Below, one piece after another: positions 9,820 through 23,863 of a stretch of 64,000 nt of DNA. Origin of the DNA: Escherichia coli (lineage in GTDB: Bacteria > Pseudomonadota > Gammaproteobacteria > Enterobacterales > Enterobacteriaceae); NCBI RefSeq assembly GCF_022846255.1, contig NZ_AP025682.1, one strand, 5' to 3'. The first letter of the stretch is position 1. Every line of letters begins with the position of its first letter. Under the pieces are notes generated by a model. That model was given only the letters and a program-made list of their open reading frames with translations. It searched no databases and was not told the origin of the DNA. Both the position numbers and the translations under genes were made by a program.

Positions 9820-11245
9820 TAATGCCAGTCAGTTAAGCAACTGACTGGCTCTTTTTCGGGGCTGTGGGGTATTTCCAGGGCCTCTCCTTTACCACTCTCG
9901 GGAAGGCCCTTTCCCTTCTTGTCGGTAATTTCACAAGTTGTCCCATACTTGCAAGATCGCGCATCAGCTCCGGTATACGTCCCGGTGAAGCGCCCTGCAA
10001 TGTCATCAGCATTCTCATCACCATTCCACATGATTCTGAGAAACTCAGTTGATTCGGCCAGTAACCTTTCAGATGTTCCGCCATTTTAATCATCTGATAT
10101 CTCACCAGATTATAAGCCAGTAAGACACCCCACAGCTCTTGCTCCACAAGCTCCGGTTTTTTACTTCTCAGCGTCAGCCTGCTCAGTTGCATCGTCTGTT
10201 TTATCTCCCTGTATCCCAGTTCGATTTCCCAGCGATGACTGTACAGATCCGCCATTTCTCCTCCGGGGAAGCGCATGGCGTCCGTCATCGACGTCAGCAG
10301 ATGGCAGACTTTTCCTTTGCGCGTCACGGTCAGCAGGCGGGCTGTCACTTCATTTCCCAGTCCCGGCCACTTTTTTCGTGCCTGCGGGCTGGTTTTCAGC
10401 TTCACCAGATGATCGCCTTTACCCAGTTTTCTGATCTCTTCATATTGCGCTCCCTTTCTGAGAGGTATCATCCAGTGGCGGTGTTCTCCCGCCAGGCTCC
10501 AGGCATTTAACAGTCCCAGTGAGTAATAACCTTTATCCATTAACGTCAGAGTGTTATCGCCGGTTTGTTCTATAAGTTGCTCAGCAAGCTCATTTTCGCT
10601 GTTCTTCATCGTGCCGAAGGCTGCAGCCGTCAGCAGATGGCTGGTCAGTTCCATCTGGCAGACCATTTTGACCTGCGGGTAGAGCGCCGGGTTCCCGGCA
10701 TGTGTCTGGCGGGGGAAGGCTGCATCGTTCTCTGGTGTATCCGGTGTGCGCCAGAACACACCATCGATGGCCAGCAGGGTCAGGCCGCACCAGTGCGGAT
10801 GCGGCGTGGCGTTATGCCAGAGCTGCGCTGTTTTCGTGAACACGCGGCGGACAGCCTCACTTCCCAGGCGCTGGCGGGCCTGAATAACGGCACTGGGGGC
10901 AACGAAGGGGCGATTGCCCGGCAGCATGATGTCCAGGCGATTCACAATCTGGTGAAGAGGTTCTTTACGCTCAAGCGCCATGCCAACAATACACCAGACC
11001 ATCATTTCGAGGGGAAGACGGCGCTTGCGTAGCGTTACAGTACCTGATTCGGCAAGGCAACGAGAGATGAGTTCGGGGTCGAGGTAATCCCCCAGAGAAG
11101 TCAGTGGGTTACGCAGAGAATCGTAACGGGATACCAGATCAAGAGCCTGTCCAATGTGCATAAAAAAATCCGGAAACAAGTGAGCGTTTCCGGATTCTTA
11201 CACAGCCACTGGATCGGTCAACTGATCCTTAACTGATCGGCATTA
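9820..11245 (-). mobile_element. IS4 insertion sequence, complete, 1426 bp
   Basis: 18-bp imperfect terminal inverted repeats TAATGCCAGTCAGTTAAG (9820-9837) and TAATGCCGATCAGTTAAG (revcomp of 11228-11245); flanked by 12-bp direct repeat CACCGACAGGGG (9808-9819 and 11246-11257); encodes IS4 transposase. Confidence 0.9.
9833..11161 (-). CDS. insG: IS4 transposase (InsG-like, DDE family), 442 aa
   Basis: ORF beginning [16 protein letters not shown]... matches recalled IS4 transposase; longest ORF extends 6 codons further upstream. Confidence 0.85.
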
Positions 11246-12464
11246 CACCGACAGGGGCTGTTTTTGCCTCACCAGCATTACAGACTGGCTGACGAATCTG
11301 CGGCGGAAGATCCTCAGAGAAAATGATCGGGCCTGAGTTCATCACGACGGCGCGTTCAATGACGTTGGAAAGCTCTCGAATATTACCCGGCCATGACCAG
11401 GCGGTAAGCAGCGACATTGCCATCGGATCGATGTCGATAATATCGCGCTGATTCTCACTACTGAATTTTTGCAAAAAGTGATTAGCTAACAGGGAAATAT
11501 CTTCCCGGCGATCGCGCAGAGGCGGCAGTATTAAATGAATAACGTTAAGGCGATAAAAGAGATCTTCACGGAAGGTGCCTTCTTTCACCATTGCCTGCAA
11601 GTCGCGGTTGGTGGCAGCAATGATGCGGATATCAACTTTTATGGTCTGATGACCGCCAATCCGTTCAAATTCCCGTTCCTGCAGAATGCGTAGTAATTTG
11701 GCTTGCAGTACCAGCGGCATTTCGCCAATTTCGTCGAGGAGCAGAGTACCTTCGTTGGCACGTTCAAATAATCCCTGACGTAAGGTTTGTGCACCAGTAA
11801 ATGCGCCTTTTTCATGACCAAACAGTTCACTTTCGAGCAACGATTCCGGCAGCGCCGCGCAGTTGACTTTAATGAACGGCCCCTTTGCCCTCCGCGAATT
11901 GTAGTGAATCGCTCTGGCAATCAACTCTTTCCCGGTGCCGCTTTCACCGCTAATCAAGACGCTGGCCTGAGAAAGGGCAATTTTGGCGGTGTCTTTGCAG
12001 ATGTCCATCATCGCCGGGCTGTTGGTGAGAATGTGCCCCCATTGCCAGCTGGTGCTCAGTGCCTGGTGCAGATGACGGATCTCTTTTTTCATTGACTGGA
12101 GTTGTAAAGCGCGCTGAACGATTAAATTCAACTCATCGAGATCAAACGGTTTGATAACATAGTCGAAGGCTCCGCAGCGTAGTGCTTCGACGGCGGTTTC
12201 CACTTCAGCATAGGCCGTCATCAGAATAACGGGTGTCCGGGTCTCATGGCTGCGCATCTCCTTGAGTGCCTTGATGCCGTCCATCTCTGGCATGCGGATA
12301 TCCATCAACACCACGTCAGGGTGAATATCGGCAAACAGGTGTAATGCTGTGCGCCCGTTGTTCGCACAATGTGTTTCGAATCCTTGTAGTGCAAAAGCGG
12401 TGCTCAGCATACGGCGAACATTATCTTCATCATCCACAATAAGGATGCGATTAATAGCAGTCAT
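11246..12464 (-). pseudogene. atoC: atoC 5' fragment (receiver + sigma-54 AAA+ domains, about 402 codons) truncated by IS4
   Basis: [22 protein letters not shown]... with GESGTGKE Walker A and GAFTGA sigma-54 interaction motif; reading frame runs into IS4 and ends after 5 IS-derived codons (VMPIS*). Confidence 0.85.
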
Positions 12465-14453: not shown

Positions 14454-17303
14454 TTGAAATACCTTGCTTCTTTTCGTACAACCCTGAAAGCCTCGCGCTA
14501 CATGTTCAGAGCATTGGCGTTAGTGCTCTGGCTGTTGATTGCTTTTTCATCCGTTTTTTACATCGTTAATGCGTTACATCAGCGAGAATCGGAAATTCGT
14601 CAGGAATTTAATCTGAGTTCCGATCAGGCTCAGCGCTTTATTCAACGCACCTCTGATGTGATGAAAGAGCTGAAGTACATAGCTGAAAATCGCTTATCGG
14701 CAGAAAACGGTGTGCTTTCCCCGCGTGGACGAGAAACGCAGACGGATGTGCCTGCGTTTGAACCGCTGTTTGCTGACTCTGATTGTTCCGCAATGAGTAA
14801 CACCTGGCGAGGTTCTCTGGAGTCATTGGCGTGGTTTATGCGCTACTGGCGCGATAATTTTTCTGCGGCTTACGATCTAAACCGGGTATTTTTAATCGGC
14901 AGCGATAACCTCTGCATGGCTAATTTCGGTCTGCGTGATATGCCAGTGGAACGCGATACCGCGTTAAAAGCTTTGCATGAACGCATTAATAAATATCGAA
15001 ATGCACCACAAGATGATAGTGGCAGTAACCTCTACTGGATCAGCGAAGGTCCGCGCCCTGGCGTCGGGTATTTTTACGCCTTGACGCCAGTTTATCTGGC
15101 GAACCGGTTGCAGGCGCTTTTGGGTGTCGAGCAAACCATCCGGATGGAGAACTTTTTCTTACCTGGTACGTTGCCGATGGGGGTTACCATTCTTGATGAA
15201 AATGGTCATACCCTGATTTCGCTTACCGGACCAGAAAGCAAAATTAAGGGCGATCCTCGCTGGATGCAGGAACGCTCCTGGTTTGGCTATACGGAAGGGT
15301 TCCGGGAGCTGGTGCTGAAGAAAAATCTGCCACCCTCATCGCTAAGCATCGTGTATTCGGTGCCGGTTGATAAGGTGCTGGAACGCATTCGCATGTTGAT
15401 CCTTAACGCAATTTTGCTGAATGTGCTTGCCGGAGCTGCATTGTTTACTCTCGCGCGGATGTACGAGCGGCGTATTTTCATTCCGGCGGAAAGCGACGCC
15501 TTGCGACTGGAAGAACATGAGCAGTTTAATCGCAAGATTGTCGCCTCCGCGCCAGTGGGTATCTGCATTTTGCGTACCGCTGATGGCGTCAATATTTTAA
15601 GTAACGAACTGGCGCATACCTATCTCAATATGCTTACGCATGAGGATCGCCAACGGCTGACACAAATTATCTGTGGGCAGCAGGTCAATTTTGTTGATGT
15701 CCTGACCAGCAACAATACCAATCTGCAAATCAGCTTCGTCCATTCGCGCTATCGTAATGAAAACGTGGCCATTTGTGTGCTTGTGGATGTTTCTTCGCGC
15801 GTGAAGATGGAAGAGTCGTTGCAGGAGATGGCACAAGCAGCGGAACAGGCGAGTCAGTCAAAATCGATGTTCCTTGCCACCGTCAGTCATGAGCTGCGAA
15901 CGCCGCTGTATGGCATTATCGGTAACCTGGATCTGTTGCAAACCAAAGAGTTACCGAAAGGCGTCGATCGTCTGGTGACGGCAATGAACAACTCTTCCAG
16001 CCTGTTGTTGAAAATTATCAGCGATATTCTCGATTTCTCGAAGATTGAATCGGAACAGTTGAAGATCGAACCGCGTGAGTTTTCACCGCGTGAAGTGATG
16101 AACCACATCACCGCCAACTATTTACCGCTGGTGGTACGCAAGCAGTTAGGCTTGTACTGCTTTATTGAACCGGATGTGCCAGTGGCCTTAAATGGCGACC
16201 CGATGCGTTTACAGCAGGTCATCTCCAACCTGTTGAGTAACGCCATAAAATTCACCGATACCGGCTGTATAGTTTTGCATGTTCGCGCTGATGGCGATTA
16301 TCTCTCTATCCGTGTTCGCGATACCGGCGTGGGGATTCCGGCGAAAGAAGTCGTGCGCTTGTTTGATCCCTTCTTCCAGGTCGGAACGGGCGTACAGCGA
16401 AACTTCCAGGGGACCGGTCTGGGTCTGGCGATTTGTGAAAAACTGATCAGCATGATGGACGGCGATATCTCGGTAGATTCAGAACCGGGAATGGGCAGCC
16501 AGTTTACCGTGCGTATTCCGTTGTACGGCGCTCAGTACCCGCAGAAAAAAGGCGTGGAAGGGTTGAGTGGTAAACGCTGCTGGCTGGCGGTCCGCAATGC
16601 GTCGCTCTGTCAGTTCCTGGAAACCAGTTTGCAGCGCAGCGGCATCGTCGTTACAACATACGAAGGGCAGGAACCGACTCCCGAAGATGTGTTAATCACT
16701 GACGAGGTAGTGAGCAAAAAATGGCAGGGTAGAGCGGTAGTGACCTTCTGTCGTCGCCATATTGGTATTCCGCTGGAGAAAGCGCCAGGGGAGTGGGTAC
16801 ACAGTGTGGCTGCCCCGCATGAGCTACCGGCATTGTTGGCGCGTATTTATTTGATCGAGATGGAGAGCGATGATCCTGCTAACGCTCTGCCGTCGACGGA
16901 CAAAGCGGTCAGCGATAACGACGATATGATGATTCTGGTCGTGGATGATCATCCGATTAACCGGCGTCTTCTGGCAGATCAGTTGGGATCGTTGGGCTAT
17001 CAATGTAAAACCGCGAATGATGGCGTCGATGCGCTTAATGTACTTAGCAAGAATCATATTGATATCGTGCTTAGCGACGTCAACATGCCAAATATGGATG
17101 GTTACCGCTTGACGCAACGCATTCGTCAGTTGGGACTGACGTTGCCGGTTATCGGAGTAACTGCTAATGCGTTGGCTGAAGAGAAGCAGCGGTGTCTGGA
17201 GTCCGGTATGGACAGCTGCCTGTCGAAGCCGGTAACGCTGGATGTGATAAAACAGACGCTAACGGTATATGCCGAGAGGGTCAGGAAATCGCGGGATTCG
17301 TAG
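14454..17303 (+). CDS. rcsC: Hybrid sensor histidine kinase RcsC
   Basis: 949-aa ORF with HisKA/HATPase and C-terminal receiver domain; size and position match rcsC. Confidence 0.95.
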   Translation: MKYLASFRTTLKASRYMFRALALVLWLLIAFSSVFYIVNALHQRESEIRQEFNLSSDQAQRFIQRTSDVMKELKYIAENRLSAENGVLSPRGRETQTDVPAFEPLFADSDCSAMSNTWRGSLESLAWFMRYWRDNFSAAYDLNRVFLIGSDNLCMANFGLRDMPVERDTALKALHERINKYRNAPQDDSGSNLYWISEGPRPGVGYFYALTPVYLANRLQALLGVEQTIRMENFFLPGTLPMGVTILDENGHTLISLTGPESKIKGDPRWMQERSWFGYTEGFRELVLKKNLPPSSLSIVYSVPVDKVLERIRMLILNAILLNVLAGAALFTLARMYERRIFIPAESDALRLEEHEQFNRKIVASAPVGICILRTADGVNILSNELAHTYLNMLTHEDRQRLTQIICGQQVNFVDVLTSNNTNLQISFVHSRYRNENVAICVLVDVSSRVKMEESLQEMAQAAEQASQSKSMFLATVSHELRTPLYGIIGNLDLLQTKELPKGVDRLVTAMNNSSSLLLKIISDILDFSKIESEQLKIEPREFSPREVMNHITANYLPLVVRKQLGLYCFIEPDVPVALNGDPMRLQQVISNLLSNAIKFTDTGCIVLHVRADGDYLSIRVRDTGVGIPAKEVVRLFDPFFQVGTGVQRNFQGTGLGLAICEKLISMMDGDISVDSEPGMGSQFTVRIPLYGAQYPQKKGVEGLSGKRCWLAVRNASLCQFLETSLQRSGIVVTTYEGQEPTPEDVLITDEVVSKKWQGRAVVTFCRRHIGIPLEKAPGEWVHSVAAPHELPALLARIYLIEMESDDPANALPSTDKAVSDNDDMMILVVDDHPINRRLLADQLGSLGYQCKTANDGVDALNVLSKNHIDIVLSDVNMPNMDGYRLTQRIRQLGLTLPVIGVTANALAEEKQRCLESGMDSCLSKPVTLDVIKQTLTVYAERVRKSRDS

Positions 17304-17500
17304 GACGGATAAGGCGTTTACGCCGCATCTGGCATTCAGTGCAAATGCCAGATGCGACGCTGACGTGTCTTATCTGGCCTACTTTAATGTAATCTGTTGA
17401 AATAATGGGAATCGTAGGACGGATAAGGCGTTTACGCCGCATCCGGCAATCGGTGCAAATGCCAGATAAGACACTAACGCGTCTTATCTGGCCTACAGGT
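17304..17500. repeat. REP/BIME-type extragenic palindromic repeats between convergent rcsC and rcsB
   Basis: Two near-identical copies of GTAGGACGGATAAGGCGTTTACGCCGCATC(T/C)GGCA plus GCCAGATG/AAGACGCGTCTTATCTGGCCTAC palindromes typical of E. coli REP. Confidence 0.6.
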
Positions 17501-18169: not shown

Positions 18170-20842
18170 CTACAGCAAGCTCTTGACATAACTGTCAATG
18201 TCGCTGATGTATTTTTCTATTCCTGGAACATCCTTCTCACGAATCAGATGTTCCAGCGTTTCACATAACTGCTTGCCGGGTACCAGATTTAGCATGGCAA
18301 ATACGCCTTTAAGACGATGAGCCGTTTGGGCTAACGCAGCAAAGTCACTGGTTGCTGCTTCAGTATACAGCCTCTTAACATCATCCGGTACTGTGTCTAC
18401 AAAGAGCGCATAATAGCCGCTGGCATGGAGTTGCGCATTTTCATCTCCGCCCAGAGGCGATTCTGTCACCTCTTCCTGCGCCAGTTGCACTTCAATTAAT
18501 TGTAAGACCGCTTCCTGCATAGCGTTGCTCATATTGAAATTGACGCACAATTGACCAGGCCCAATTTCCCGTACGCCAGACTCATCATCGCTTAAAAGCA
18601 AGCCAGAGGCAGTAAGATTAGACGGATTATCCGTTAAAAAGATATCATAATCTTGACTAATTAATCTTTCATCGGGTGTGATACAGGTTGCACCCCAATT
18701 TTCTAACTGGCGAGTGACAATATTCCGAATTTCTGCCGAAGTAACATCCACCATTACGCAGACATCATCCAGTAATCGCTCTTCTTCCTCTTCAACTTCC
18801 GGGTCAGCTGCGAGCATTTTGATATGCACAGAGTAGCGTGTACCGAGCCCATCCCGCGTTTTGATGTTTAAATGACCGCCCAGTTTACGCGCCAGTTGAT
18901 CGCTCAGCCAGAATGCCAGCGGGTCCGCCTTGCCATAGCGATCGTTTTGGGTCTGGTTGATAAACGGGAAGTGCAAATTATCCATTTCATGAATACTTAC
19001 GCCTTCTCCCGTGTCCAGAATGCGGAACGTCAGGCGGTCTTCGGAGGACTCATCCTGATCAACCTCAAGGGTGATTTTTCCCAATTGCGTTGAGGTCACG
19101 GCATATTGCATCAGTAGTAGCAAAATACGTCGTAAGGCATCGCGATCGCCGCGGCGCATATCGTGTGCTTTCAGATGATTGTTAATCAGCAGTTGCAGAC
19201 CTTTACGCTTGATGGCAGGCAACACTGAAGGCACAACTTCATCAATTAAATCCTGCACGGAGAACAGCTCCGTCTCACTTTTCCAGCTATCGTCCGCAAG
19301 CATGTTCGCTAACTGTATTTCATCGACCAGCCGCACCAGCACATCTGCCTGATTCGCCAGTTGTTTGCCTTCCGGGGCGTTGAGTTTAGCCGCGCTCTCC
19401 GCCAGGGACTGTGCGGGTTCTTTCAGCGCATCGCCAATGTTTTTCATAAAGGTCATCCGCCCCTGCTGGTTTTTCTCATACAGACGCTGCGCCTGCTTGA
19501 GTTTCTTGTTTACCAGCACTTCGCGATCCTGATCGCGAATAATGAAAATTTGTGTGCGCGGCGCAACCTGGCTGCGGAACATGCGGATCTCATACAGCTC
19601 GTTATTGATCGTCGCCTGAATAATCCCCTGATGCTGTTCCGCCATGGTGGTGATGTTTTGCAGATTCAAATGCGGCAGCAAATGATCGGCAATTTTGTTA
19701 CTTATGACTGTGCGGTTCGATTCCTGATCGTGAACCAGCAGGCCGAGCGGCAGCAGTGAGACTATCTCTTCATTAATTGCCCGTAAAATGCGCAATTCGT
19801 TATTGACCGCCGTGCTGGGGACGCTTTCTGTACTGCGGCTGGAGAAATGGCGGAATGTGGTATAGCCAAATAACGCCAGCGCCAGCAAACCGATGTTCAG
19901 CAGCAGTGGCAGCAGAATGTTTTGCAACGTATCCAGCAGTAAGGTGCCGTAAGGAACCTGCCAGACCAGGCGCATATCGGTAGAGTTGAGTGCCGAGGAG
20001 ATTTCAATCTTCGTACTGTTAAAGTGGATACTGACGCTATCCGTCCCTTCTTTCTCATTTTCATTGTTTCCCGTTGCCGTCGCGTCTGGCTCAAGGCGGA
20101 AACTGTCCAGCGGCATACCCGGTGGGATCAAATCATTAATCGGCAGATCAAAAGCCACGACCGTTGCCAGATGTCCCGGCTGGTTGAACGTGGTACGCAA
20201 GGTAAAGTAATGACCGTTCTGCCAGGCCAGGCGGCGCATGTTAGAAAAACTTTCGCGTTCATCGAGGGCGTTGGCCTGTTGCAACATCTCTGCACGACGT
20301 GAATCAACAATGTCGCTGACGGTCGATTCTTTAAATCCGGAGGTGAGATCTTTGAGGGGCAGGGTTGAGATCAGCACCAGACTGTTATCCTGACCATTCA
20401 GGTAATACATCGACCACGGTACATTTTCTGCGCCCCACAATGTGTCCAGATAGGTGGACATCCGTTGAGTCATCTCAAGCGTTGAGTTGTCGTGAGAGCC
20501 AAAGATTAACGCTTCCGTTTTGCGGCGTGGTTTCTCCAGATAGTAGACATCCTGTTTCAGGCGCGTCTCTTGTAAACCTTCGCCGGAGGAGGGGGAGGTT
20601 GTCGCGGCAATGTTGTCGTAGATCTGCCAGGTCACGTAACGCCAGGTATCGACGCGCTTTTGGATAGCGTGGGTAATGTCGACAATCTGGTAACTTTTAT
20701 CTTTCAGCCAGGCGTTAACGGCGCTTTGTACCATTACACCCATCGTCACCAGTAACACAATGATCAACAGTAAAAAGAAGCGGGTAATGCTCCCCGGTAG
20801 GAGTGAAAAGCGGGTCGTGGCCGTTGTCTCTTTCTGACGCAT
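18170..20842 (-). CDS. rcsD: Phosphotransfer intermediate protein RcsD
   Basis: 890-aa ORF, membrane N-terminus, HPt-containing C-terminus; directly upstream of rcsB. Confidence 0.9.
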   Translation of the reverse strand: MRQKETTATTRFSLLPGSITRFFLLLIIVLLVTMGVMVQSAVNAWLKDKSYQIVDITHAIQKRVDTWRYVTWQIYDNIAATTSPSSGEGLQETRLKQDVYYLEKPRRKTEALIFGSHDNSTLEMTQRMSTYLDTLWGAENVPWSMYYLNGQDNSLVLISTLPLKDLTSGFKESTVSDIVDSRRAEMLQQANALDERESFSNMRRLAWQNGHYFTLRTTFNQPGHLATVVAFDLPINDLIPPGMPLDSFRLEPDATATGNNENEKEGTDSVSIHFNSTKIEISSALNSTDMRLVWQVPYGTLLLDTLQNILLPLLLNIGLLALALFGYTTFRHFSSRSTESVPSTAVNNELRILRAINEEIVSLLPLGLLVHDQESNRTVISNKIADHLLPHLNLQNITTMAEQHQGIIQATINNELYEIRMFRSQVAPRTQIFIIRDQDREVLVNKKLKQAQRLYEKNQQGRMTFMKNIGDALKEPAQSLAESAAKLNAPEGKQLANQADVLVRLVDEIQLANMLADDSWKSETELFSVQDLIDEVVPSVLPAIKRKGLQLLINNHLKAHDMRRGDRDALRRILLLLMQYAVTSTQLGKITLEVDQDESSEDRLTFRILDTGEGVSIHEMDNLHFPFINQTQNDRYGKADPLAFWLSDQLARKLGGHLNIKTRDGLGTRYSVHIKMLAADPEVEEEEERLLDDVCVMVDVTSAEIRNIVTRQLENWGATCITPDERLISQDYDIFLTDNPSNLTASGLLLSDDESGVREIGPGQLCVNFNMSNAMQEAVLQLIEVQLAQEEVTESPLGGDENAQLHASGYYALFVDTVPDDVKRLYTEAATSDFAALAQTAHRLKGVFAMLNLVPGKQLCETLEHLIREKDVPGIEKYISDIDSYVKSLL

Positions 20843-21153
20843 TCGTGTTTATGACCTGTTAAAACTTCGCGAAGTGATAGGGCAGTATAAAGGGTACAGT
20901 GTGAAATTCCAGACTCTTACCTGATTGATGATTCTCTATTCTCCAGTGATATTTATCATCCTGCATTGGGGGAAATAGATGTACAAGCGCCATTTTGCTG
21001 TACAAATAACCTACAAAAAGCCTAACGAAATTAATTGCAAATAAACGAAGATTGCTGGAAATTATGCTGATGTTAATTATTTGTGAAATAGTTAACAAGC
21101 GTTATAGTTTTTCTGTGGTAGCACAGAATAATGAAAAGTGTGTAAAGAAGGGT

Positions 21154-21246
21154 AAAAAAAACCGGATGCGAGGCATCCGGTTGAAATAGGGGTAAACAGA
21201 CATTCAGAAATGAATGACGGTAATAAATAAAGTTAATGATGATAGC
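21154..21246 (-). ncRNA. micF: MicF antisense sRNA (regulator of ompF mRNA)
   Basis: Minus strand reads GCTATCATCATTAACTTTATTTATTACCGTCATTCATTTCTGAATGTCTGTTTACCCCTATTTCAACCGGATGCCTCGCATCCGGTTTTTTTT, matching recalled micF; divergent from ompC; ends in hairpin plus U-run. Confidence 0.85.
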
Positions 21247-21397
21247 GGGAGATATTCTAGTTGCGAGTGAAGGTTTTGTTTTGACATTCAGTGCTGTCAA
21301 ATACTTAAGAATAAGTTATTGATTTTAACCTTGAATTATTATTGCTTGATGTTAGGTGCTTATTTCGCCATTCCGCAATAATCTTAAAAAGTTCCCT

Positions 21398-21470
21398 TAT
21401 ATTTACATTTTGAAACATCTATAGCGATAAATGAAACATCTTAAAAGTTTTAGTATCATATTCGTGTTGG
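21398..21470 (+). promoter_or_regulatory. OmpR-binding boxes of the ompC promoter
   Basis: Tandem TTTACATTTTGAAACATCTA / ATGAAACATCTTAAAAGTTTTAG motifs about 120-180 bp upstream of the ompC ATG. Confidence 0.5.
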
Positions 21471-21580
21471 ATTATTCTGCATTTTTGGGGAGAATGGACT
21501 TGCCGACTGATTAATGAGGGTTAATCAGTATGCAGTGGCATAAAAAAGCAAATAAAGGCATATAACAGAGGGTTAATAAC

Positions 21581-22696
21581 ATGAAAGTTAAAGTACTGTC
21601 CCTCCTGGTCCCAGCTCTGCTGGTAGCAGGCGCAGCAAACGCTGCTGAAATTTACAACAAAGACGGCAACAAATTAGATCTGTACGGTAAAGTTGACGGC
21701 CTGCACTATTTCTCCGATAACGACTCTAAAGATGGCGACAAGACCTACATGCGTCTTGGCTTCAAAGGTGAAACTCAGGTTACTGATCAACTGACCGGTT
21801 ATGGTCAGTGGGAATATCAGATTCAAGGTAACGAACCTGAAAGTGACAATAGTTCCTGGACCCGTGTGGCATTCGCTGGTCTGAAATTCCAGGACGTTGG
21901 TTCTTTTGACTATGGTCGTAACTACGGCGTTGTTTATGACGTAACATCCTGGACCGACGTGCTGCCAGAATTCGGTGGTGACACCTACAGCTCTGACAAC
22001 TTCATGCAGCAGCGTGGTAACGGCTTCGCGACCTACCGTAACACCGACTTCTTCGGTCTGGTTGATGGCCTGAACTTTGCTGTTCAGTACCAGGGTAAAA
22101 ACGGTAGCCCGTCTGGCGAAGGTATGACTGGTGTGACCAACAATGGTCGTGATGTTCTGGAACAGAACGGTGACGGCGTTGGTGGTTCTATCACTTATGA
22201 CATCGGTGAAGGCTTCAGCTTCGGTGGTGCAATCTCCAGCTCCAAACGTACCGCAGAGCAGAACAATTATGGCATCGGTAACGGCGATCGTGCAGAAACC
22301 TACACTGGTGGTCTGAAATACGACGCTAACAATGTATACCTGGCTGCTCAGTACACCCAGACTTACAACGCAACTCTGGCTGGTGATTTAGGTTGGGCGA
22401 ACAAAGCTCAGAACTTTGAAGTGGTTGCACAGTACCAGTTCGACTTCGGTCTGCGTCCTTCTGTAGCTTACCTGCAGTCCAAAGGTAAAAACCTGAATGC
22501 CAACATCGCTGGTCGTACTTACGACGACGAAGATCTGCTGAAATATGTTGATGTTGGTGCGACCTACTACTTCAACAAAAACATGTCCACCTACGTTGAC
22601 TACAAAATCAACCTGCTGGACGACAACCAGTTCACCCGCGCTGCTGGCATCAACACTGATAACATCGTAGCTCTGGGTCTGGTTTACCAGTTCTAA
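21581..22696 (+). CDS. ompC: Outer membrane porin OmpC (371 aa allele)
   Basis: Porin ORF with signal peptide [21 protein letters not shown] and C-terminal ...ALGLVYQF; conserved beta-barrel core. Confidence 0.95.
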
Positions 22697-22715
22697 TCTC
22701 GATTGATATCGAACA

Positions 22716-22738
22716 AAGGGCCTGCGGGCCCTTTTTTC
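22716..22738 (+). terminator. Rho-independent terminator of ompC
   Basis: AAAGGGCCTGCGGGCCCTTTTTT hairpin plus T-run 20 bp after the ompC stop. Confidence 0.6.
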
Positions 22739-22807
22739 ATTGTTTTCAGCGTACAAACACAGTTTTTTGGTGTACTCTTGCGACCGTTCGCATGAGGATA
22801 ATCACGT

Positions 22808-23863
22808 ATGGAAATAAGCTTTACCCGCGTGGCACTGCTGGCTGCCGCGCTCTTCTTTGTTGGTTGCGATCAAAAACCACAACCCGCCAAAACCCACGCT
22901 ACTGAAGTTACCGTTCTTGAAGGCAAAACCATGGGTACCTTCTGGCGTGCCAGCATTCCGGGCATTGACGCCAAACGCAGTGCCGAACTTAAAGAAAAGA
23001 TTCAGACCCAGCTGGACGCCGACGATCAGCTGCTTTCGACCTATAAAAAAGATTCCGCGCTGATGCGCTTTAACGACTCGCAAAGTTTGTCGCCGTGGCC
23101 AGTAAGTGAAGCGATGGCCGATATCGTCACCACCTCGCTACGCATTGGCGCGAAGACCGATGGCGCGATGGATATAACCGTCGGGCCGCTGGTGAATCTG
23201 TGGGGCTTTGGCCCGGAACAACAGCCGGTTCAAATTCCGAGCCAGGAACAGATCGATGCGATGAAAGCCAAAACCGGCTTACAGCACCTGACGGTCATTA
23301 ATCAGTCGCATCAGCAATATCTGCAAAAAAACCTGCCGGATTTATATGTCGATCTCTCCACTGTCGGCGAAGGCTATGCGGCGGATCATCTGGCACGCTT
23401 GATGGAGCAGGAAGGGATTTCCCGCTATCTGGTGTCGGTGGGCGGCGCGCTGAACAGCCGTGGCATGAACGGTGAAGGCCAGCCGTGGCGGGTAGCGATT
23501 CAAAAACCAACCGATAAAGAAAACGCGGTTCAGGCTGTGGTGGATATCAACGGTCATGGCATTAGCACCTCTGGCAGCTACCGTAACTATTACGAACTGG
23601 ACGGCAAACGTCTTTCTCATGTTATCGATCCGCAAACCGGGCGTCCTATCGAACACAATCTGGTATCCGTGACGGTGATTGCCCCGACGGCGCTGGAAGC
23701 CGATGCCTGGGATACTGGCTTAATGGTACTGGGGCCGGAGAAAGCCAAAGAGGTTGTTCGCCGGGAAGGACTGGCGGTCTACATGATCACCAAAGAGGGC
23801 GATAATTTTAAAGCCTGGATGTCGCCGCAGTTTAAAAGCTTCCTTATCAGCGAAAAAAATTAA
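22808..23863 (+). CDS. apbE: FAD:protein FMN transferase (ApbE/Ftp), lipoprotein
   Basis: 351-aa ORF with lipoprotein signal (LFFVGC) and ApbE family sequence. Confidence 0.9.
   Translation: MEISFTRVALLAAALFFVGCDQKPQPAKTHATEVTVLEGKTMGTFWRASIPGIDAKRSAELKEKIQTQLDADDQLLSTYKKDSALMRFNDSQSLSPWPVSEAMADIVTTSLRIGAKTDGAMDITVGPLVNLWGFGPEQQPVQIPSQEQIDAMKAKTGLQHLTVINQSHQQYLQKNLPDLYVDLSTVGEGYAADHLARLMEQEGISRYLVSVGGALNSRGMNGEGQPWRVAIQKPTDKENAVQAVVDINGHGISTSGSYRNYYELDGKRLSHVIDPQTGRPIEHNLVSVTVIAPTALEADAWDTGLMVLGPEKAKEVVRREGLAVYMITKEGDNFKAWMSPQFKSFLISEKN

Follow-up and report, generated by a model that had tools for sequence, protein, structure and literature searches.

A micF-ompC divergent module of canonical type in a 64-kb window of Escherichia coli

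The 64-kb stretch of DNA analysed here (the window) carries, as we conclude with high confidence, the canonical E. coli micF-ompC divergent module. This module is already known and is an ordinary textbook feature: micF was one of the earliest antisense RNAs with a regulatory role to be described from bacteria, and the control region that it shares with ompC is a standard textbook example. The initial annotation had read this stretch as a known feature, and this reading is borne out, as micF and the OmpR-box region lie divergent from ompC and all defined cis elements are identical to those of K-12. The conclusion is based on the presence, position and sequence identity of the elements, on the RNA fold, on the pairing potential and on an intact ompC ORF. 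No observation in the analysis argues against it. The coordinates of all elements are listed in Table 1.

Table 1. Elements of the micF-ompC module, with positions in the window
Feature	Position	Strand	Basis
micF, 93-nt MicF small RNA (5' end 21246, 3' end 21154)	21154-21246	-	RF00033 and mapping of K-12 b4439
MicF Rho-independent terminator: hairpin nt 65-87 (21160-21182) and U-tail (21154-21159)	21154-21182	-	terminator scan and fold
MicF internal stem-loop, nt 26-51	21196-21221	-	MFE, centroid and Rfam consensus structure
MicF nt 1-33, single-stranded antisense domain for the ompF translation-initiation region	21214-21246	-	identical to K-12
control region shared by micF and ompC, 253 bp, bounded by the two transcription starts	21247-21499	.	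PMC1489923 and K-12 alignment
micF -10 hexamer TAGAAT (-13 to -8)	21254-21259	-	sequence; identical to K-12
mar/sox/rob box ACAGCACTGAATGTCAAAAC (-51 to -32), overlapping the -35 position	21278-21297	-	consensus match; identical to K-12
OmpR box C1 (TTTACATTTT GAAACATCTA)	21402-21421	+	identical to K-12; within the published C1 oligo
OmpR box C2 (AGCGATAAAT GAAACATCTT)	about 21423-21442	+	identical to K-12
OmpR box C3 (AAAAGTTTTA GTATCATATT)	21443-21462	+	identical to K-12
ompC core promoter P1: -35 TTGGAT 21467-21472, 17-bp spacer, -10 GAGAAT 21490-21495	21467-21495	+	sequence; identical to K-12
ompC 5' leader, about 81 nt	21500-21580	+	base-for-base identical to K-12; start inferred
ompC CDS, full-length 371-aa porin	21581-22696	+	uninterrupted ORF and Pfam Porin_1

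The MicF RNA, its fold and its pairing with ompF

When the whole window was searched with all Rfam models (cmscan), a match to RF00033 (MicF) was found at 21154-21247(-), with 116.8 bits (E=9.5e-18). The score lies above the gathering score of the family (79 bits), and the untruncated match covers the whole model (positions 1-94 of 94), which places the RNA in the MicF family. In a local scan of 20700-22900, the match was rescored with E=3.3e-19. A permissive Rfam scan of the same segment returned no second credible RNA family, only a sub-threshold chance match. In the curated record of K-12 MG1655 (NC_000913.3), micF is b4439 (2313084-2313176) and is located between ompC and rcsD. Transfer of b4439 via a gap-free alignment leads exactly to 21154-21246(-). 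The initial annotation had placed MicF on the minus strand from 21246 to 21154, with its own terminator, and had named alignment to the micF reference and a covariance-model search as checks. Both recover the RNA, and the transfer of b4439 gives exactly these coordinates. MicF carries a conserved 13-nt sequence, GCUAUCAUCAUUA, at its 5' end (PMC1489923). This invariant sequence is present in the window, where 21246 to 21234 reads GCTATCATCATTA.

The gene is divergent from ompC (21581-22696(+)) and lies beside rcsD (18170-20842(-)), and the gene order of the region is rcsC-rcsB-rcsD-micF-ompC-apbE-ada. The K-12 MG1655 gene has the same length (93 nt) and is likewise located between rcsD and ompC. 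The two RNAs are identical at 92 of 93 nt. Nucleotides 1-81, which include the entire antisense domain, are the same; the one difference is at nt 82, which is U in K-12 and C in the window. C82 agrees with the Rfam consensus.

The initial annotation had remarked that the ORF track lacks micF. This is true and is trivially explained, because MicF is non-coding. Among the matches listed, the RefSeq/PGAP feature under the micF match is "none" in all 12 complete E. coli genomes, one of which is a K-12 MG1655 derivative, and routine RefSeq/PGAP annotation appears to omit the gene. With neither an ORF nor, in these 12 genomes among the matches listed, a RefSeq feature, micF is easily overlooked. Beyond annotation quality, the finding of this module matters little.

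MicF has a predicted minimum free energy of -21.4 kcal/mol, which corresponds to z=-5.4; of 200 shuffled sequences, none folds as well. In the predicted fold, nt 1-25 are unpaired and are followed by the internal hairpin and then by the terminator, for which the terminator scan and the fold give a GC-rich stem of 10 bp (21160-21182) and 8 U. Among 112 other enterobacterial species (see below), the pairs of the internal stem-loop are canonical in 109-112 and those of the terminator stem in 83-112. The predicted MFE secondary structure of the K-12 RNA is identical. C82 (21165) pairs as G70-C82, where K-12 has a G70.U82 wobble. The predicted dG is -21.4 kcal/mol with C82 and -18.5 kcal/mol with the U82 of K-12, a difference of 2.9 kcal/mol in favor of the window. 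Across species, the pair 70-82 covaries (GC in 52, AU in 36 and GU in 24) and is canonical in 112 of 112.

Pairing with ompF was computed for MicF nt 1-33 and positions -17 to +11 of the K-12 ompF sequence, ompF being absent from the window. The predicted duplex has a dG of -27.1 kcal/mol. Shuffled controls gave -11.4 +/- 2.8 kcal/mol, and none of 500 attained the observed value. The predicted pairing spans the GAGG Shine-Dalgarno sequence at -14 and the AUG. Of 5420 E. coli genomes, 5080 carry this K-12 ompF target segment with an identity of 99% or more. A duplex of full-length MicF with ompF was uninformative (-39.4 observed, with a shuffle minimum of -45), as long spurious pairings form; therefore, the seed-restricted test with nt 1-33 was used instead.

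The linking region and the ompC gene

In E. coli, micF and ompC are joined by a 253-bp region, and its OmpR sites activate both genes (PMC1489923). The corresponding region of the window equals that of K-12 in length and has three substitutions (21252, 21399 and 21400). Tandem OmpR boxes had been reported upstream of ompC, and C1-C3 are indeed present, with 21402-21462 being identical to K-12. C1, C2 and C3 are tandem 20-bp OmpR sites with two 10-bp halves each (PMC3050692), and a published C1 oligo (PMC2586830) matches C1 of the window apart from the 5' flank. The half-site TGAAACATCT occurs twice, at 21411 (C1) and at 21432 (C2), as a direct repeat. Relative to an ompC start at about 21500, C1-C3 extend from -98 to -38 and thus form three contiguous 20-bp sites in the stretch roughly 40-100 bp ahead of it. 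The exact limits of C2 and C3 are, in part, those that we take them to have.

The ompC start is placed at a distance of 253 bp from the 5' end of micF, which leaves 81 nt up to the ATG at 21581. The positions of the -10 hexamer (GAGAAT) and the -35 hexamer (TTGGAT), which in part we presume to be those of ompC, are consistent with this start. The initial annotation had ended the module at 21470. This end is too early, as it falls inside the ompC -35 hexamer, and the module reaches to about 21500. It is thus about 30 bp longer, or 110 bp longer if the leader is included.

The micF box for MarA, SoxS and Rob has one mismatch to the consensus AYnGCACnnWnnRYYAAAYn. A consensus search is, by itself, at chance level (38 of 100 shuffles yield at least two matches). 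The weight of this site comes from its identity to the characterised K-12 site, because the consensus match alone is non-significant. Its placement and class are, in part, what we take them to be from Martin et al. 1999. A simple sigma-70 scan called neither the micF promoter nor ompC P1; it reported two sites, with 3.6 expected, and was thus at chance level. Both promoters have poor -35 hexamers and are activator-dependent, and for ompC P1 such a miss is to be expected. As to the regulators, micF is a documented target of MarA, SoxS and Rob (bioRxiv 10.1101/2024.08.26.609649), and OmpR dependence of MicF has been reported (PMC5175337). Lrp represses micF, and MicF represses lrp in turn.

The promoter precedes an intact general porin gene. 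Pfam Porin_1 covers 1-337 of the 337 model positions in OmpC (E=5e-141), and a terminator-like hairpin follows the gene at 22715-22734. OmpC from the window and that of K-12 (371 vs 367 aa) share 89% identity, and small indels separate them.

Substitutions relative to K-12 and alternative readings

The rcsD-ompC intergenic region (738 bp) differs from K-12 by ten substitutions and has no indels. Six of these are in the micF-rcsD spacer and thus outside of the module. The other four are inside: 21165 is nt 82 of MicF (U to C); 21252 is micF -6 (A to T), which belongs to the discriminator, downstream of the -10 hexamer; and 21399-21400 (GC to AT) are 2-3 bp upstream of C1. The window and K-12 do not differ in C1, C2, C3, the ompC -35 and -10 hexamers or the 81-nt leader, nor in the mar/sox/rob box or the micF -10 hexamer. 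The module had been described as apparently unaltered. This is correct for every defined cis element and needs to be qualified for the module as such, given the four substitutions.

Allele frequencies were determined by a search of 5426 complete E. coli genomes. In 5374 of them, a segment of 501 bp around the module has an identity of 95% or more. The MicF allele of the window is found exactly in 3231 of 5374 genomes and is the majority form in E. coli; U82 as found in K-12 is the minority. The micF promoter allele (84 nt) has exact counterparts in 1106 of 5372 genomes. The 65-nt segment that comprises the AT and C1 is rare in E. coli, being found exactly in only 27 of 5364 genomes (about 0.5%).

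For comparison across species, the micF-ompC locus was collected from 112 other enterobacterial species (one genome each), which were found via MicF nt 1-28, and was aligned from micF through the ompC start. The elements have mean identities with the window of 0.86 (C1), 0.77 (C2), 0.91 (C3), 0.99 (ompC -35 hexamer) and 0.84 (mar/sox/rob box), and the spacer at 21298-21383 has one of 0.47. For MicF nt 1-33 the value is 1.00, with nt 1-28 fixed by the search pattern. Conservation thus follows the functional elements, and the spacer is not conserved.

Because the four substitutions are at unconstrained or covarying positions, they are almost certainly neutral, and a functional effect, as judged from these alignments, is very unlikely. 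The opposite reading would be that this is a regulatory variant, in which the GC to AT change at the C1 flank, the A to T change at micF -6 and the stronger terminator together shift the level or the set-point of ompC and micF, C1 being the high-affinity site at which OmpR starts to bind. We regard this as highly improbable. The rarity of the 65-nt segment in E. coli is in line with such a variant, and so is the likewise rare ompC coding allele that is linked to it; across species, however, AT is the commonest state at the C1 flank (21399: A 66, T 23, G 21; 21400: T 63, A 36, C 11), and it is the G and C of K-12 that are in the minority (21 and 11 of 112 species). The published C1 binding oligo (PMC2586830) does include the flank positions 21399-21400, but Escherichia coli O127:H6 E2348/69 (EPEC, NC_011601.1), which is well studied, is 100% identical to the window over 21100-21600 (501 bp), as are about 24 other genomes, and carries the same segment with AT and C1. 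As for the more stable terminator, the responsible pair 70-82 is GC, AU or GU in all of the 112 species, and C82 is the majority allele in E. coli. The micF -6 position is variable and carries three different bases across species (57, 28 and 18). With respect to both MicF nt 82 in E. coli and the C1 flank across species, K-12 does not represent the majority allele or the commonest state, respectively.

The ompC coding allele is rare. Its best match, at 99.6% identity, occurs in two genomes, of isolates from monkey and pig; for more than 5200 genomes, identity is below 90%. The ompC CDS of E2348/69 is 98.4% identical, and the differences cluster at 21937-22069 and 22636-22678, with no difference across 21027-21936. 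Over a wider region of 24 kb, E2348/69 is 98.9% identical to the window, which therefore belongs to another strain, and the gene order matches from atoB to yejA. The ompC allele looks mosaic, which is consistent with recombination within ompC. It is tempting to speculate that the AT next to C1 and the rare mosaic ompC mark a recombinational import, with its 5' end within the promoter, which might subtly change the occupancy of C1 by OmpR. We consider this to be most doubtful. If it were true, the import could alter the osmotic set-point of ompC and micF in this lineage.

A further reading, to which we attach a negligible probability, is that the micF stretch codes for a small protein. There is a TTG-initiated ORF of 75 aa (21073-21300(-)) in the same orientation as micF, and in 81 of 113 species its frame has no interruption between -54 and MicF nt 93; in the other 32, the frame is broken. 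Conservation is at the nucleotide level, as nt 1-33 are 100% identical, third codon positions included (nt 1-28 being fixed by the search), and the MicF stems show compensatory base-pair covariation. Both observations point to selection on the RNA. Moreover, the putative TTG start is inside the mar/sox/rob box, ahead of the mapped 5' end of the RNA, and neither K-12 nor E2348/69 has an annotated CDS at this ORF. For the broken frame, the RNA-level conservation and the missing CDS in K-12 and E2348/69, the 75-aa ORF was rejected as a coding gene, and the stretch is assigned to the MicF RNA of the canonical module.

The regulatory circuit and other features of the window

For this strain, binding of the proteins, transcription and repression are expected by analogy to the K-12 literature. 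At high osmolarity, phospho-OmpR would fill C1 and then, with its level increasing, C2 and C3. The bound phospho-OmpR would activate the weak ompC promoter rightward and micF leftward. Under antibiotic or oxidative stress, MarA, SoxS or Rob would activate micF via the box that overlaps the -35 position. The unstructured 5' 33 nt of MicF, with Hfq, are predicted to base-pair with the ompF mRNA over its Shine-Dalgarno sequence and AUG. Translation of ompF would then be blocked, so that OmpF would fall while OmpC would rise.

The genes ompF, ompR, envZ and hfq are not within the 64-kb window, and marA, soxS and rob are likewise located outside of it. When a K-12 ompF 5' fragment was compared with the window (blastn), the sole match was the paralogous ompC coding sequence. 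The initial annotation had concluded that the OmpC/OmpF osmoregulatory circuit should be functional. Function of the whole circuit cannot be deduced from the window, because ompF and envZ-ompR lie elsewhere; it is a reasonable prior, and it is the cis half that is intact here. Among complete E. coli genomes, the best match to the window is 98.9% identical over 24 kb, too distant to stand in for the rest of this genome. In this strain, the cis-acting elements for reciprocal porin control are of the standard kind and have been retained; such control is relevant to envelope permeability and antibiotic uptake.

Several other features of the window were recorded. An IS4 element of 1426 bp (9820-11245) is inserted in atoC. 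Its transposase has the domains Nterm_IS4 and DDE_Tnp_1, its terminal inverted repeats have about 22 nt, and it is flanked by a perfect 12-bp target duplication (CACCGACAGGGG, at 9808-9819 and 11246-11257). The residual atoC ORF (11229-12464, 411 aa) keeps the receiver and the sigma-54 AAA+ domains. The C-terminus is lost and, therefore, induction of the ato operon (acetoacetate and short-chain fatty acids) is probably lost as well. E2348/69 lacks IS4 in atoC, and the atoC::IS4 junction was found in none of the 5426 complete E. coli genomes. The spacer between rcsC and rcsB contains two tandem copies of naRNA4/REP-type elements (RF02564) at 17303-17379 and 17417-17493(+), with 70.0 and 73.7 bits.

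The two ends of the window are occupied by unrelated genes. At the left end, none of three large consecutive ORFs within 1-5525(+) (1027, 549 and 258 aa) matches an NCBIfam model at E<=1e-10; all three are outside of the stretch that was compared with E2348/69. Between narP and tRNA-Pro, there is an uninterrupted autotransporter ORF of 759 aa (43733-46012(+)) with AIDA stalk, pertactin and beta-barrel domains. E2348/69 has only a frameshifted remnant of 453 bp at this position, which we take to be that of yejO, presumably a pseudogene in K-12. Rfam also detects a tRNA at 46117-46190(-), which is annotated as tRNA-Pro at the equivalent position of E2348/69, and an L25 (rplY) ribosomal-protein leader at 49906-49931(-); both are ordinary. 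The right end of the window codes for an ABC-transporter substrate-binding protein, a cyclic-di-GMP phosphodiesterase and a murein endopeptidase.
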